Of a DNA stretch of 8,429 nt, positions 54-3,513 are shown piece after piece. The translations under genes and the position numbers were made by a program. The DNA is taken from assembly GCA_048939465.1 (NCBI GenBank), contig JBHLPL010000084.1, positions 1 to 8,429 on the forward strand, in the 5' to 3' direction. Every line of letters starts with the position of its first letter. Within the stretch, counting starts at the first letter, position 1. The DNA comes from Promethearchaeota archaeon. Lineage in GTDB: Archaea; Asgardarchaeota; Odinarchaeia; Odinarchaeales; JBHLKK01. The notes beneath the pieces are model-generated. The model was not told the origin of the DNA and searched no databases. It saw only the letters and a program-made list of their open reading frames with translations.

Positions 54-77
54 AGTCAAAGGAATAGGTTTTTGACT
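54..77. terminator. Possible terminator hairpin at the PAC2 gene end
   Basis: AGTCAAA (54-60) and TTTGACT (71-77) form a 7-bp inverted repeat with a 10-nt loop, overlapping the PAC2 stop codon. T-runs occur on both strands nearby. The function is a guess. Confidence 0.2.
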
Positions 78-864
78 AGCTTATGTATGATTGACGGTCT
101 GAGCCTTCAGGGATTCTTTTATCAAGACGACCCCTAAGCTTCTCAAAGGCGCGCTCCATGGTCACAATCTGCTTGTCCAGTGCACTCACATCAATCCCGA
201 TATTGAACCATTTACCTAATATATCGACAATTGCCCTAGAGGCCTTTGGGTCCGTCGCCAAAATAGGCATTGTCTCCGCTAGTAAACAGACTCCGTCAAT
301 CCCATATTTGGCTTTTCCCCAAGCGGGGATTATACCATTTGCACCCATAATGACTCCTTCACCCATTACCTTGCATTGCTCAAGTTTCGTAAAGACATCA
401 AGAAGCTCGCGGGAAGTTGAGGAAACGAAAATGCTGGGCTCGGAAGAAACATTCTCTGTGACATACGCTCCTGTTGAAACAATAGTCTTCACACCGTGAG
501 ACTTGCAGAAGTTGCTAATGTAATCCGAAAATACAAATATACCGAGAGAAGTTGTTGGTTGAAAGTCGCCGCTTATGATGAATAAATCATTGACTCCTTT
601 TGGATTTTTCCAGAAGTAGATTGTTGATCGCGGTACGTGAAGCTTTCCATCTGCCCCCACAGCAACCTGGGCTGGGAAATCGTGGTAGAAAATCAAGGCG
701 ACCTTCTCAGCCTTTAGGCTTTCAGCGATGCTTAGAACAGCCCCTTTGCCGACCATTGCTATTCCAGGTAGCCCTACGATAGCCACAGGGTTATTTAACT
801 TAGCATGATCTAGTTTCTTCAGTATTTCTGTACGGGGCCCATTCATTCGGTGCACATTCTTCAC
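76..864 (-). CDS. PAC2-family proteasome assembly chaperone-like protein (COG2047/TIGR00162 type)
   Basis: N-terminal IVGLPGIAMVGK (family motif GLPGxGxVGK), YHDFPAQV, IISGDFQP, GANGII, GVCLLAET, DPKAS, and a C-terminal ..SYIS matching the YIG-type tail. The start is either GTG at 864 (overlapping AAGGAGTG) or ATG at 846. Confidence 0.9.
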   Translation of the reverse strand: MKNVHRMNGPRTEILKKLDHAKLNNPVAIVGLPGIAMVGKGAVLSIAESLKAEKVALIFYHDFPAQVAVGADGKLHVPRSTIYFWKNPKGVNDLFIISGDFQPTTSLGIFVFSDYISNFCKSHGVKTIVSTGAYVTENVSSEPSIFVSSTSRELLDVFTKLEQCKVMGEGVIMGANGIIPAWGKAKYGIDGVCLLAETMPILATDPKASRAIVDILGKWFNIGIDVSALDKQIVTMERAFEKLRGRLDKRIPEGSDRQSYIS

Positions 865-934: not shown

Positions 935-938
935 TCAT
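935..938 (+). other. Inferred target tetranucleotide/TAM (TCAT; TTCAT with 934) of the IS200/IS605 insertion
   Basis: It lies 15 nt before GAGA (954-957), which sits at the foot of the left-end hairpin. This gives the +16..+19 guide geometry known for IS608. GAGA pairs with TCAT by the IS608 rule (guide 1,2,4 with cleavage 2,1,4). Joining 938 to 1317 restores an in-frame stop for the neighbouring gene. Confidence 0.65.
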
Positions 939-953
939 TTGAAACACCTCGAG

Positions 954-977
954 GAGACTCCATCCTGAAGGACGAAG
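954..977 (+). repeat. Left-end subterminal hairpin with guide tetranucleotide
   Basis: GAGA-CTCCATCC-TGAA-GGACGAAG, with 6 of 8 stem pairs intact. Positions 955-977 match the minus-strand hairpin at 3102-3080 at 18 of 23 positions without gaps. Confidence 0.65.
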
Positions 978-1022
978 AGGAACTCAGGTTAACATTAAAT
1001 GGGTCCGTCAAATGATTAGAAT

Positions 1023-1237
1023 CTCGAAGTAGTTTATGTCAGCCCTAACTACACCAGCAAAGAATGTAACAGATGTCACTGTAGAGACACTTCCCGACAT
1101 TAGGATGCCCAGAATGCAAGGTGTGCGGACACACCCCCAACTCGGACCTGAATGGTGCAAGAAACACAGCCCGACGCTACATGCGGATTACCAAGCTGGG
1201 CTTTTGTAAACAAGCCCCCCGATTTAGCGTGTTGTGA
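1023..1237 (+). pseudogene. tnpB: tnpB C-terminal remnant (zinc finger plus RuvC-III), truncated and frameshifted
   Basis: The frame from 1023 reads LEVVYVSPNYTSKECNRCHCRDTSRH* (TnpB VxPxYTSxxCxxC). After a frameshift at about 1101-1103, the frame from 1103 reads GCPECKVCGHTPNSDLNGARNTARRYM...SVL* (CxxCG..NxDxNAAxN, with the RuvC-III Asp at 1145). RuvC-I/II and the N-terminus are absent. Confidence 0.9.
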
Positions 1238-1336
1238 AGTCGAGACTATCCCTAACGGCATAAGATTGATACCGAGCACAGCTACAAACTTCATTTGTTA
1301 GGGCGGAGTAGCTTACGATTCAGTAGGATTCGTGAA
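1198..1336 (+). ncRNA. TnpB omegaRNA/reRNA-like scaffold (to 1316) plus flank-derived guide (about 1317-1336)
   Basis: Hairpin GGGCTT-TTGTAAAC-AAGCCC (1198-1217). Long stem TAGC/GCTA (1225-1228 with 1281-1284) plus GTGTT/AGCAC (1229-1233 with 1275-1279). Terminal hairpin then TAGCTTAC. This layout matches IS605-type tnpB 3' ends as I recall them. The 5' boundary and expression are unknown. Confidence 0.62.
1285..1316 (+). repeat. Right end of the element (degenerate hairpin plus terminal TTAC)
   Basis: ACTTCATTT-GTT-AGGGCGGAGT-AGC-TTAC. The stem now relies on several G-T pairs and has one mismatch. Positions 1286-1316 match 3102-3072 (minus) at 22 of 31 positions without gaps. Confidence 0.8.
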
Positions 1337-2236
1337 TCGAGACTCAATATCAGGCACTCGGATTTCAGCAAGCCCGATGACTTTCGAAACCATGGTCTCT
1401 TCTATGTCCAATTCTCTAATTAACTCGTCTTTTGTGATTTTCTCTTTAAACCGGACTATGTTACTAATCCTAGTAACATAGCTATACAAACGACTAATTC
1501 TATTCTTGAGAATTTCAAGTGCTCTTGGATCTTCCATATCTTTTACCTCCAAAATAATCTGAAGCAGGGAGGTCATCCAAGACACATTCTCTGGTTTCGA
1601 GATTCCATGTTTCTCGAACAGTCCAGTATCAACATAGTACACAATATATCTGTCTGGTCTTTTAACAGAGGGGAGCTCATCCAGTTTGACGCCTATCAAT
1701 TGGGATTCTTCTAAATTATCCTCTTCAGTTAGCTGCGCTATTGAAACACTCTCAGGAGAGATGCTGGACAAAGTGCAAAGCAAGATACGGACTTCAATCT
1801 TATTATCCCCAACAATGAAGATTTTATCACCATTGACCAAGTGATAGATGAGCTTTGCAAGATCACCAGCAGAAACGACCTTCAGAGTGTCCTCTATCGA
1901 TTTTAGCGTAGCGATATCAATCATTGAAAACATATTGCGTTTATTGATATTTAGAATGAATGCGAGCGATATTTGGGATAGACGCCAGTTGATTTCTGAC
2001 CTTGAATAGTCCCTACTACTAACAACTATTAATATGTAATCACTCATCTTTTTGAACCAGAAGGTGAAATCGCTTGTGGATATTTCTTCAACGCTCTGAC
2101 CGGTTAATATGTTGAGGAAGCTATTTTGAGCGCTGAAATATCCAGAGATTAGGGTGGGATCAACTGCGATGCTTCCGTACACTCTAGAAACAAGGGGGAT
2201 CCCATCTGTCTCCAAAATGTAAACATTGTGTATCAT
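1313..2236 (-). CDS. Longin-domain protein with a DENN/folliculin-like central domain (307 aa)
   Basis: MIHNVYILETDGIPLVSRVYGS..DPTLISGYFSAQNSF..EEISTSDFTFWFKK..YILIVVS fits the longin beta-beta-alpha-beta-beta-beta-alpha pattern. LIYHLVNGDKIFIVGD..VRILLCTLSSISP (1852-1754) resembles the DENN core helix-strand-helix. I place the start at ATG 2236 rather than 2392. The ORF is solid, the longin call is likely, and the DENN call is less certain. Confidence 0.75.
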   Translation of the reverse strand: MIHNVYILETDGIPLVSRVYGSIAVDPTLISGYFSAQNSFLNILTGQSVEEISTSDFTFWFKKMSDYILIVVSSRDYSRSEINWRLSQISLAFILNINKRNMFSMIDIATLKSIEDTLKVVSAGDLAKLIYHLVNGDKIFIVGDNKIEVRILLCTLSSISPESVSIAQLTEEDNLEESQLIGVKLDELPSVKRPDRYIVYYVDTGLFEKHGISKPENVSWMTSLLQIILEVKDMEDPRALEILKNRISRLYSYVTRISNIVRFKEKITKDELIRELDIEETMVSKVIGLAEIRVPDIESRFTNPTES

Positions 2237-2416: not shown

Positions 2417-2887
2417 TTGAAGGGTATTTACACTCTGTTGTTTGGAGTTTCAGAAACAATGCAAATCAGAGTCGGAAGCTTGGGAGTAGTCAGAGTTGAG
2501 AGTGGTGTTTATGCCTATACTGGCTCGGCGCTGGGCAGCGGAGTATCAAGTCTAGAGTGTAGAATAAGAAGACATCTCTCAGAGAAGAAAAGAACCTTTT
2601 GGCACATCGACTATCTCCTGATGCATGAAAAATCACGAATCATTGAGGTCATCTATGCTAAAACCGACCAGAATGTAGAATGTGAGGTTTTTAAAAAGCT
2701 TAGTAGGCGTTCCGGAGTTACTATTCCCGTTGAAGGATTTGGTGCTTCCGACTGCAAGAGTAAATGCGATAGTCATCTCTGCTTTATCAAGACAAGTGTG
2801 GGAGAAGCACTGCGGACGATTATGGATTGCTATCGAGAAGCAAAACAGGAACCAGAGAGATGGAAAGGCAAGGTACTAAAACGTTAA
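2417..2887 (+). CDS. DUF123 / GIY-YIG (Uri superfamily, COG1833) endonuclease
   Basis: GIYTL, GVYAYTGSA, RIRRH, WHIDYL, conserved Glu in ECEV, and GFGASDC..CDSHL. TTG start. Confidence 0.92.
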   Translation: MKGIYTLLFGVSETMQIRVGSLGVVRVESGVYAYTGSALGSGVSSLECRIRRHLSEKKRTFWHIDYLLMHEKSRIIEVIYAKTDQNVECEVFKKLSRRSGVTIPVEGFGASDCKSKCDSHLCFIKTSVGEALRTIMDCYREAKQEPERWKGKVLKR

Positions 2888-3168: not shown

Positions 3169-3513
3169 CTACTTCCTGACCTTCAGAGGAAGCTTCCTGA
3201 AGAATGATTTTGTAGCAGATAGCAATCTGGAGATGACATTGTCATATTTGGCCAGTGAAACCGAGATATCTGAAGAAAGGGATAGAACAGTAAATATTCC
3301 TTGTTCAGTTTTAAGTGCGCTGGATGATATTTCAACTTTCTTGAATCCTTCTCTCTTAAAAACTTCTTTTGCATCCTCAATCTCCATGAATTCCCAGATG
3401 TTGACAGGGGGATGAAATTCTATCTTTAGGTTACACTTCGTGAGATTCTTTATCTCCTGGAATTTTATGGTAATCCGTGTAGGCGAAAATCTTCCAGACG
3501 GACTAGGCAACAA
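3169..3513 (-). CDS. Hypothetical protein (about 114 aa)
   Basis: Open frame with GGAGG 4 nt upstream of TTG 3513 (7 nt upstream of TTG 3510), protein-like composition, and no overlap with other credible genes. I recognise no family. Confidence 0.7.
   Translation of the reverse strand: MLPSPSGRFSPTRITIKFQEIKNLTKCNLKIEFHPPVNIWEFMEIEDAKEVFKREGFKKVEISSSALKTEQGIFTVLSLSSDISVSLAKYDNVISRLLSATKSFFRKLPLKVRK

Follow-up and report, generated by a model that had tools for sequence, protein, structure and literature searches.

A compact predicted longin-DENN protein encoded upstream of a PAC2-family gene in an Odin-lineage Asgard archaeon

The analysis of an 8,429-nucleotide stretch of archaeal DNA (contig JBHLPL010000084.1 of assembly GCA_048939465.1, hereafter the window) points to a 307-residue protein that is probably a soluble, complete and very compact DENN module of a divergent subfamily, with one of the ~18 GTPases of its own genome as the most likely binding partner. 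In the predicted architecture, an N-terminal longin domain (uDENN) would be followed by a central alpha/beta core (cDENN) and by a helical dDENN tail. DENN-module proteins such as folliculin (FLCN), C9orf72/SMCR8 and the DENND Rab GEFs, several of them the products of disease genes, have central regulatory roles in the membrane traffic and nutrient signalling of eukaryotes. The origins of the module bear on how far a eukaryote-type GTPase circuitry already existed in the Asgard archaea, a question to which the protein described here adds a previously unannotated longin-DENN member from an Odin-lineage order and no new principle. The first-pass annotation was correct in stating that DENN-like domains had already been reported from Asgard archaea (Liu et al. 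2020/21), and the novelty of our finding is limited because longin+DENN proteins from these organisms, including folliculin-like ones from the Heimdall group, were described in that work (bioRxiv 10.1101/2020.10.19.343400; Nature 2021).

The gene occupies positions 1,313-2,236 of the minus strand, from an ATG at 2,234-2,236 to a TAA at 1,313-1,315, and both the ORF list and the translation confirmed the 307-residue product originally assigned to it. The same frame extends without a stop as far upstream as an ATG at 2,392, from which an alternative product of 359 residues would result. We regard the ATG at 2,236 as the right start because the full-length homologues all measure 300-310 residues, most of them with M-I-H-N-V-Y at the N-terminus, because the upstream in-frame stretch has no Met in two genomes of the same genus, and because a start at 2,392 would leave only 24 bp to a divergently transcribed gene that starts at 2,417. 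Alignment with these two same-genus genomes also revealed a 378-bp insertion in the window (938-1,315), placed between the last sense codon of the gene and its ancestral stop. In both genomes the gene reads TCG directly into TGA, and the TAA found at present in the window comes from the inserted sequence, which also parts the gene from its downstream neighbour. Intact full-length orthologues with 30-89% identity in six genomes of the order establish that this is a real gene.

The longin (uDENN) domain spans residues 1-100 (1,937-2,236, minus strand), as delimited by the AF2 model, VIA structure comparisons, hhalign and sub-threshold Pfam matches. In the AF2 model, strands at residues 2-9, 14-19, 50-53, 57-64 and 67-74 and helices at 27-41 and 79-95 follow each other in the order beta-beta-alpha-beta-beta-beta-alpha, with no N-terminal helix. 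Over residues 1-112, VIA gave Z scores of 12.5 to 11.7 against known longins, headed by synbindin (2zmv_B, Z 12.5) and the longin domain of VAMP7 (4afi_A, Z 12.2), with Sec22b and Bet5 also in this range, whereas the Pfam model Fuz_longin_1 matched this part below its cut-off (E 0.0022). The N-terminal longin noticed in the sequence is in this way borne out as a predicted fold, and the model contains the uDENN/longin part of a DENN module. The closest paralogues of this longin are found in two longin-GTPase fusions on contigs C31 and C138 of the same genome, which share its MIH-VY start and align with it over 119 residues with 32% identity and an hhalign probability of 98.6%.

The rest of the chain was predicted to fold as the two remaining parts of the module. 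The cDENN alpha/beta domain (residues ~123-215; 1,592-1,870, minus strand) was delimited from VIA, a C-terminal model, the alignment and hhalign, and contains the nearly invariant G143 and P161; a shared motif is visible in the widened alignment. The helical dDENN-like part (residues 216-307; 1,316-1,591, minus strand), based on the helices of the AF2 model (218-233, 239-263, 269-276 and 280-290) and on the VIA alignments, ends in a helix-turn-helix-like tail at residues ~266-300, which is weakly wHTH-like. The whole-protein model has a pLDDT of 80.1 and a pTM of 0.77, in a fold that rests on an alignment of 8 sequences. Its best Foldseek matches in the PDB span full-length longin-DENN proteins, namely C9orf72 (E 1.6e-7), DENND10, DENND1B, DENND1A and FLCN/FNIP2 (the last at E 1e-5). 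For the DENN part of the same model, VIA gave Z 11.7 against DENND1B (3tw8_A; rmsd 3.6 over 144 aligned residues, model 112-260), 11.6 against DENND1A, 11.5 against DENND10 and 10.8 against the C-terminal domain of FLCN, and the alignments to DENND1A, DENND10 and FLCN extend to model residues 294-299. Moreover, the C-terminal domain was folded alone (pLDDT 80.2) and compared by VIA with 48,161 PDB representatives, among which the six best were all DENN-module proteins: DENND1A (Z 12.1, 176 aligned), DENND10 (11.7, 188), two entries of FLCN (10.8 and 10.7, 178), C9orf72 (10.1, 199) and SMCR8 (9.3, 175). All six alignments reach residues 196-207 of the 208 in this model, and DENN proteins also fill ranks 1-9 when it is searched with Foldseek. 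The predicted structure therefore holds a cDENN core and a helical dDENN within residues ~112-300. The first-pass annotation had staked its reading beforehand on a DENN core and a longin fold, and the AF2 model contains both of them.

Below the DENN proteins, the C-terminal model retrieved P-loop NTPases (secretion ATPases and others) with Z scores from 8.8 to 6. The general alpha/beta layout is common to the DENN core and to P-loop NTPases. These matches raise the reading that the C-terminal domain is no DENN at all but a P-loop or pseudo-GTPase domain that has degenerated after descent from the longin-GTPase fusion paralogues, in which the same longin is joined to an Arf/Ras-like GTPase; the strand-loop-helix at residues 138-159 has in fact a superficial resemblance to a decayed Walker A region. 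Asgard fusions of this kind, with Rag/Arf-like GTPases, are already on record (Liu et al. 2020; Tran et al. 2024, PMC10933270). We consider this origin extremely improbable, given that the NTPases cover 90-149 residues at lower scores and the DENN proteins 175-199, that Ras/Arf-type GTPases are absent from the 50 best structural chains, and that the sequence has no GxxxxGK[ST] (Walker A) motif. That it is a decayed copy of the paralogues' own GTPase domain is not supported by hhalign, whose alignment to the fusions is confined to residues 1-119 and leaves their GTPase domain unmatched. Despite the close longin, the C-terminal domain of the 307-residue protein thus differs from that of the fusions in being DENN-like and in lacking a P-loop.

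At the sequence level, the case for a DENN domain is one of faint but concordant signals. The 33-residue segment in which a parallel to folliculin was first noticed corresponds to residues 129-161 (1,754-1,852) and falls within the cDENN, and the folliculin counterpart that had been quoted is exact, being residues 364-396 of human FLCN (E 1.5e-16 to 6ulg_L). The parallel agrees with the structure alignment, which pairs model residue 112 with FLCN 347 and so sets residue 129 opposite FLCN 364, a register that presumes no indel in the first 17 aligned residues; identity between both segments is just 6/33. Folliculin_C (PF16692, positions 3-55) matches residues 111-163 with E 0.053, scoring 13.5 bits where the cut-off is 27, and the sub-threshold Pfam matches that three family members show in their C-terminal domains, which are Folliculin_C for the 307-residue protein, Avl9 and FNIP_C, all come from DENN-superfamily models. 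Using hhalign, residues 123-301 align at 86.8% (E 4e-6) with a family widespread among Asgard archaea, in which a GP-type longin is combined with a DENN-like domain. Language-model neighbours were the Folliculin, C9orf72, SMCR8 and DENND11 clusters, with scores that serve as leads only. Above threshold, Pfam yielded no curated DENN or longin model for the protein and no match to DENN (PF02141) in the whole genome, the relatives gave only sub-threshold matches to curated DENN models (including Avl9, PF09794), and NCBIfam returned nothing relevant for the protein. When PDB sequences were searched with the single protein, the family profile and the widened profile, no DENN protein reached a significant E-value; the top matches were an MK-D1 roadblock protein (E 0.017) and SMCR8 (E 0.15). 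In the same line, the widened profile retrieved from a set of 5.8 billion proteins only unannotated Asgard proteins, with no eukaryotic bridge. Because curated models and PDB profiles gave nothing significant, it is on the predicted structure that we infer homology with the eukaryotic DENN proteins.

If the fold is accepted, the next issue is what such a protein would do. FLCN-FNIP and C9orf72-SMCR8 are longin-DENN heterodimers that act as GAPs for RagC/D and Arf, while DENND1A and DENND1B are GEFs for Rab35. The structural comparisons and the weak Folliculin_C and FNIP_C matches bring the 307-residue protein close to the first group. A folliculin/SMCR8-type GAP is one reading to be weighed: its longin would supply the catalytic Arg, and the partner would be either a second copy of itself or, by longin-longin pairing, one of the longin-GTPase fusions, whose longins are so similar. 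FLCN, SMCR8 and C9orf72 are all among the best structural matches, and the loop between beta1 and beta2 carries G12-I13-P14 (2,195-2,203, minus strand), which the family alignment shows as G-[IL]-P in 7/7 full-length members and which stands at the position that the GP motif has in GAP-type longins. R18, in strand 2, is also invariant in those seven sequences, yet it is not conserved in the wider DENN-like alignment. Helix alpha1, where Arg164 of FLCN lies, has neither Arg nor Lys in this protein. The GP motif is defined as standing immediately before longin strand 2 in GAP longins, which have also been described from Asgard archaea, and is absent from non-GAP longins, DENND proteins included (PMC12290439); in the family studied here, a strict GP is missing at that position, with the G-[IL]-P in its stead. 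Moreover, when the 91%-complete genome was searched with a profile built on the DENN-like domain, just this one gene came up, leaving no second DENN-like gene for a FLCN-FNIP-like pair. An ORF on contig C33, beside a Rab-like GTPase gene, was considered as a second DENN gene (E 0.1) and discarded, as it is coiled-coil/wHTH-like and matches the tail only. A co-fold of two copies with the family alignment scored 0.28 against a mark of 0.42, a value that counts for neither dimer nor monomer. With strict GP and a second DENN subunit both missing, and R18 no more than a candidate arginine finger, a GAP of the FLCN/SMCR8 type seems unlikely to us.

A closer likeness is offered by the DENND proteins. 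DENND1A and DENND1B (6ekk, 3tw8) and DENND10 (8p0v_M) are the best cDENN/dDENN structural matches (Z 12.1-11.5, 144-188 residues aligned) and have the same single-chain longin-cDENN-dDENN order, although identity is only 9-13%, there is no significant sequence match and the archaeal protein is ~50-70 residues shorter. It also lacks the long disordered insertions found in eukaryotic FLCN/C9orf72. Because the strict GP and the second DENN subunit are missing, an exchange factor of the DENND type or a non-catalytic platform is likelier than a folliculin-type GAP. Searches of the genome gave 18 matches to the Ras superfamily and 8 to roadblock. By analogy with the eukaryotic proteins of like structure and with distant Asgard relatives, one of these ~18 GTPases would most likely be bound by the 307-residue protein, which may then act on the nucleotide state or the localisation of its partner. 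The initial proposal of a GTPase regulator with a longin-DENN fold stands for the fold, as a predicted structure; that the protein binds a GTPase, and in which direction it would act, is what we infer. Gene order in this subfamily links it to no such partner, and the strict GP of GAP-type longins is absent.

The gene neighbourhood offers a different kind of partner. Directly downstream and in the same direction lies a PAC2-family gene, a homologue of proteasome assembly chaperones (76-864, minus strand; Pfam PAC2, E 2.1e-30), whereas upstream a DUF123 gene (2,417-2,887, plus strand; Pfam E 7.6e-27) is transcribed divergently. The remainder of the window has a 114-residue ORF without family and a 1572-residue ORF whose orthologue in locus L004 has GT4 glycosyltransferase domains. 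ORF list and Pfam agree with the earlier remark that the window is free of small GTPase and roadblock genes, and neither kind was found as a neighbour in any orthologous locus examined. DUF123 is found upstream in orthologous loci L004, L006, L008 and L009 and not in L005. On the other hand, the order longin-DENN, PAC2 and a ~120-residue gene with weak SCP2-type matches recurs in all the orthologous loci examined, the genes being 24-90 bp apart, and persists down to 30% protein identity amid rearranged surrounding genes. From this constancy one could argue that the protein, with its longin-DENN fold, works with the PAC2 homologue, perhaps together with the small SCP2-like protein, and not primarily with a GTPase. 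Several observations weigh against it: the pair is confined to one order, where adjacency may be mere inheritance; 23 loci from other families of the phylum, with PAC2 proteins 36-47% identical, have no longin or DENN-like neighbour; one sister-family genome retains DUF123, PAC2 and the 120-residue gene without any remnant of the longin-DENN gene; and in the window itself the insertion now splits the two genes. We hold a primary role with PAC2 to be quite unlikely.

Liu et al. described an operon in which a DENN-domain gene stands beside genes for a LAMTOR1-like roadblock protein and a Rab-like GTPase. The orthologous loci do not have this arrangement, and the subfamily differs from the Asgard DENN proteins of that work in lying always upstream of PAC2 and never in a roadblock/GTPase operon, as well as in its shorter length (300-310 against ~350-390 residues) and in its longin, which is Fuz/Mon1-like or roadblock-like with G-I-P, in contrast with the GP type of the other Asgard family. 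Shared features are the Asgard host and the order of longin and DENN. Distant DENN-like relatives of the protein do resemble the published operon, 9/24 of their loci having, at most 1.5 kb away, a gene for a Ras-like GTPase, for a roadblock protein or for both, and two of them (L024 and L028), which adjoin GTPase and roadblock genes, share the G-I-P. We give a very low probability, slightly below that of a PAC2 partnership as such, to the scenario of a minimal single-chain DENN module that left a GTPase/roadblock operon and became a fixed transcriptional partner of PAC2 and the SCP2-like protein. In that case the archaeon would have tied a trafficking regulator of eukaryotic type to proteostasis, or to bringing a proteasome factor to membranes, with a paralogous longin-GTPase fusion as a conceivable client through longin-longin pairing.

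The preferred reading, a compact DENN module that would bind a GTPase, concerns a narrowly distributed gene. Tight orthologues were found in its own order only, where they occur in 6/7 genomes (own genome counted), among them a small closed one. The gene is wholly absent from one species of a sister family, and is for that reason dispensable there. Entries of the family that bear a name are all labelled either 'hypothetical protein' or 'roadblock/LC7 domain-containing', an annotation that can now be improved. As a small and complete predicted module of 300-310 residues with no long disordered insertions predicted, the protein would lend itself both to experimental structure determination, the first on an archaeal DENN module, and to GEF/GAP assays with the limited set of ~18 GTPases. 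Among public sequencing runs, no RNA dataset is listed as containing this DNA, which is present in mangrove and sediment metagenomes.

The AlphaFold2 model of the 307-aa protein P0001, encoded on the minus strand at 1313-2236, was built from an eight-sequence alignment and reached a pLDDT of 80.1 and a pTM of 0.77. Its residues 1-95 are predicted to run beta-beta-alpha-beta-beta-beta-alpha and lack an N-terminal helix, in the model the order of a longin and not of a roadblock domain. In line with the N-terminal longin domain proposed in the first-pass annotation, VIA-align superposed this part on synbindin with a Z of 12.5. A short helical linker follows, and then an alpha/beta core with five strands (aa ~123-215) and, at the C-terminus, four helices. 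When the whole model was compared with the PDB by Foldseek, full-length longin-DENN proteins led the matches, namely C9orf72 (E 1.6e-7), DENND10, DENND1B, DENND1A and FLCN/FNIP2. For the C-terminal part of this whole-protein model, VIA-align gave DENND1B (Z 11.7, rmsd 3.6, 144 residues aligned), DENND1A (11.6), DENND10 (11.5) and the C-terminal crystal structure of folliculin (10.8).

So that the longin domain could not carry the list of matches, aa 100-307 were folded separately (pLDDT 80.2) and compared, Foldseek not being used, with all 48,161 PDB representatives. The first six ranks were all occupied by DENN proteins: DENND1A (Z 12.1, 176 aligned), DENND10 (Z 11.7, 188), FLCN (10.8 and 10.7, 178), C9orf72 (10.1, 199) and SMCR8 (9.3, 175). 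Below them came the secretion ATPases GspE (Z 8.8) and FlaI (Z 8.5), and further down assorted P-loop NTPases with Z from 8 to 6, covering only 84-132 residues. A Foldseek search with the same model also placed nine DENN chains at the top. The DENN/folliculin-like C-terminal domain suggested previously is thus recovered in the model, and the identification of P0001 as a longin-DENN protein is supported at the level of the predicted fold. The C-terminal tail (aa ~266-307, window 1316-1440) shows a helix-turn-helix-like pattern and superposes on dDENN helices; its sole sequence echo in the same genome is a coiled-coil/wHTH-like ORF on another contig, C33 (E 0.1).

At the sequence level, no Pfam match of P0001 or its relatives rose above the curated cut-off. 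The sub-threshold matches of P0001 were Fuz_longin_1 over aa 5-103 (E 0.0022) and Folliculin_C, whose profile positions 3-55 aligned with aa 111-163 (E 0.053), and those of the C-terminal parts of two relatives, Avl9 for P0005 (E 0.012) and FNIP_C for P0008 (E 0.0085), agree with them in direction. Remoter Asgard relatives gave weak Folliculin, C9orf72-like, Longin and DENN matches, and profiles of the P0001 family searched against the PDB reached no DENN protein at a significant E-value. Language-model neighbours in the ESM Atlas fell in Folliculin, C9orf72, SMCR8 and DENND11/Avl9 clusters, with scores of 0.75-0.80 that serve as leads only. The segment likened to folliculin at first pass does lie at aa 129-161 in the translation of ORF 1313-2236, and the folliculin sequence given as its counterpart matches FLCN 364-396 in every letter. 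The structural alignment begins with model residue 112 opposite FLCN 347, which, barring an indel early on, brings aa 129 level with FLCN 364 and puts the proposed pairing in register, despite only 6 identical residues out of 33.

The ORF that ends at 1313 has no in-frame stop as far back as the ATG at 2392, a start that would give 359 aa. The ATG at 2236 was accepted as the start because full-length homologues are 300-310 aa long and mostly begin with M-I-H-N-V-Y, the upstream in-frame stretch holds no Met in two same-genus genomes, and a start at 2392 would leave only 24 bp before the divergent DUF123 gene (start 2417). At the other end, a 378-bp insertion (938-1315) sits precisely where TCG, the final sense codon, once met the TGA that was the ancestral stop; in the two same-genus genomes these codons follow one another directly, without the insertion. 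The present TAA stop is supplied by the insert, so the protein is unaltered, and the PAC2 gene is moved to ~450 bp away.

Among the genomes of the phylum searched, tight orthologues (DENN-like domain, E < 1e-58) occur only in the order of this archaeon, in all three genomes of its family (its own counted) and in three of the four of the sister family. In every orthologous locus the longin-DENN gene is followed after 24-90 bp by a co-directional PAC2-family gene and then by a conserved ~120-aa gene (L004:9967-10329, L005:9812-10168, L006:7828-8187 and L008:7774-8139), whose position falls past the end of the window contig; weak SCP2-fold matches (SCP2, E 0.0021; Alkyl_sulf_C, E 0.13-0.21) suggest that its product may be a small lipid-binding protein. 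A divergent DUF123 gene usually precedes, and the outer genes are rearranged. This constant order amid rearrangement could reflect a functional link with PAC2, a reading to which we give low probability. The fourth sister-family genome (G024, 93% complete) keeps the DUF123, PAC2 and ~120-aa genes at its locus L060 on contig C14 but has a 423-bp non-coding gap (1063-1485) in place of the longin-DENN gene; tblastn detected no remnant there, and a genome-wide profile search was also negative. At 23 loci that belong to other families in the phylum, PAC2 orthologues lack any longin or DENN-like neighbour. The association is accordingly specific to this lineage, and plain inheritance may account for it.

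Two further proteins of the same genome, on contigs C31 (~19781-20758, minus strand, locus L002:811-1788) and C138 (locus L003:1501-2358), share the MIH-VY start and much the same longin domain (35% identity to P0001 over the first 96 residues and 31% over the first 86, respectively), continued by an Arf/Ras/Rag-like GTPase domain whose P-loop, DxxGQ and NKxD motifs are intact. The C-terminal domain of P0001 could accordingly be imagined as a decayed GTPase, but profile-profile comparison with the fusions aligned residues 1-119 only (98.6% probability, 32% identity), P0001 lacks a Walker A motif, and no Ras/Arf chain appears among the 50 best structural matches of the C-terminal model, and we reject this explanation. 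The paralogy is informative in its own right, since in this genome one longin module has been joined to a GTPase in two proteins and to a DENN domain in a third.

Beyond the order, DENN-like matches of lower significance (E 1e-4 to 1e-7) were found in 34 of the 301 phylum genomes searched, in proteins of 280-390 aa that keep the core motif around G143 and P161. Their N-termini are a GP-type longin, a G-I-P longin as in P0001, or a CxxC zinc module in place of the longin (L025:574-2262, L031:1252-2262, L037:1453-2286 and P0008), a CxxC plus DENN-like shape of which one Atlas cluster is auto-named 'CpXC domain-containing'. The widespread family that combines a GP-type longin with a DENN-like domain aligns with aa 123-301 of the P0001 family (hhalign probability 86.8%, E 4e-6). 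A Ras-like GTPase and/or roadblock gene lies within 1.5 kb in 9 of 24 distant-relative loci, matching the roadblock/Rab-like GTPase/DENN operon described in Asgard archaea by Liu et al. As noted at first pass, the window has no such gene; the ~18 Ras-superfamily and 8 roadblock matches of the genome all lie outside it.

With the gene, its conservation and its predicted fold established, we infer that P0001 binds a small GTPase. A folliculin-type GAP is one possible role, from which we lean away: the loop ahead of strand 2 reads G-I-P and not GP, a motif reported to be specific to the longins of GAPs and to be lacking in DENND proteins (PMC12290439), the wider family has no conserved arginine, and the genome (91% complete) yielded no second DENN-like gene and hence no second DENN subunit. 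For these reasons we favour a protein that would act as a DENND-type GEF or platform.

Liu et al. reported DENN-domain proteins from Asgard archaea, among them Heimdall-group proteins with a longin+DENN architecture resembling that of folliculin. Folliculin/SMCR8-type longins have been described in Asgard archaea (PMC12290439), DENN domains are counted among Asgard trafficking homologues (Arf-family preprint), and DENN-fold relatives are noted in Archaea and Bacteria (PMC13392464). The earlier statement that DENN-like domains are reported from Asgard archaea is borne out by the operon of Liu et al. and the Arf-family preprint, and P0001 is an unannotated, unusually compact (307 aa, as proposed) member of these known longin-DENN proteins. 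Only three points were not found described in the literature searched: the association with PAC2, the confinement of tight orthologues to a single order, and the relationship of the longin domain to its paralogues in the GTPase fusions.

The window makes up the whole of contig C5 (8,429 bp), from a genome of 1.96 Mb. The order in which the genome search places it also includes a set of genomes of 1.3-1.4 Mb, of which one is closed, a placement in keeping with an Odin lineage of Asgard archaea; the closest proteins to P0001 are labelled Promethearchaeota, Hodarchaeota or Odinarchaeia archaeon by submitters, and DNA of the window recurs in mangrove and sediment metagenomes. Between DUF123 and a 1572-aa glycosyltransferase fusion, a 114-aa ORF of no family (3169-3513, minus strand) is probably a real gene, since ORFs of 113-114 aa occupy the equivalent position in L004 and L008.
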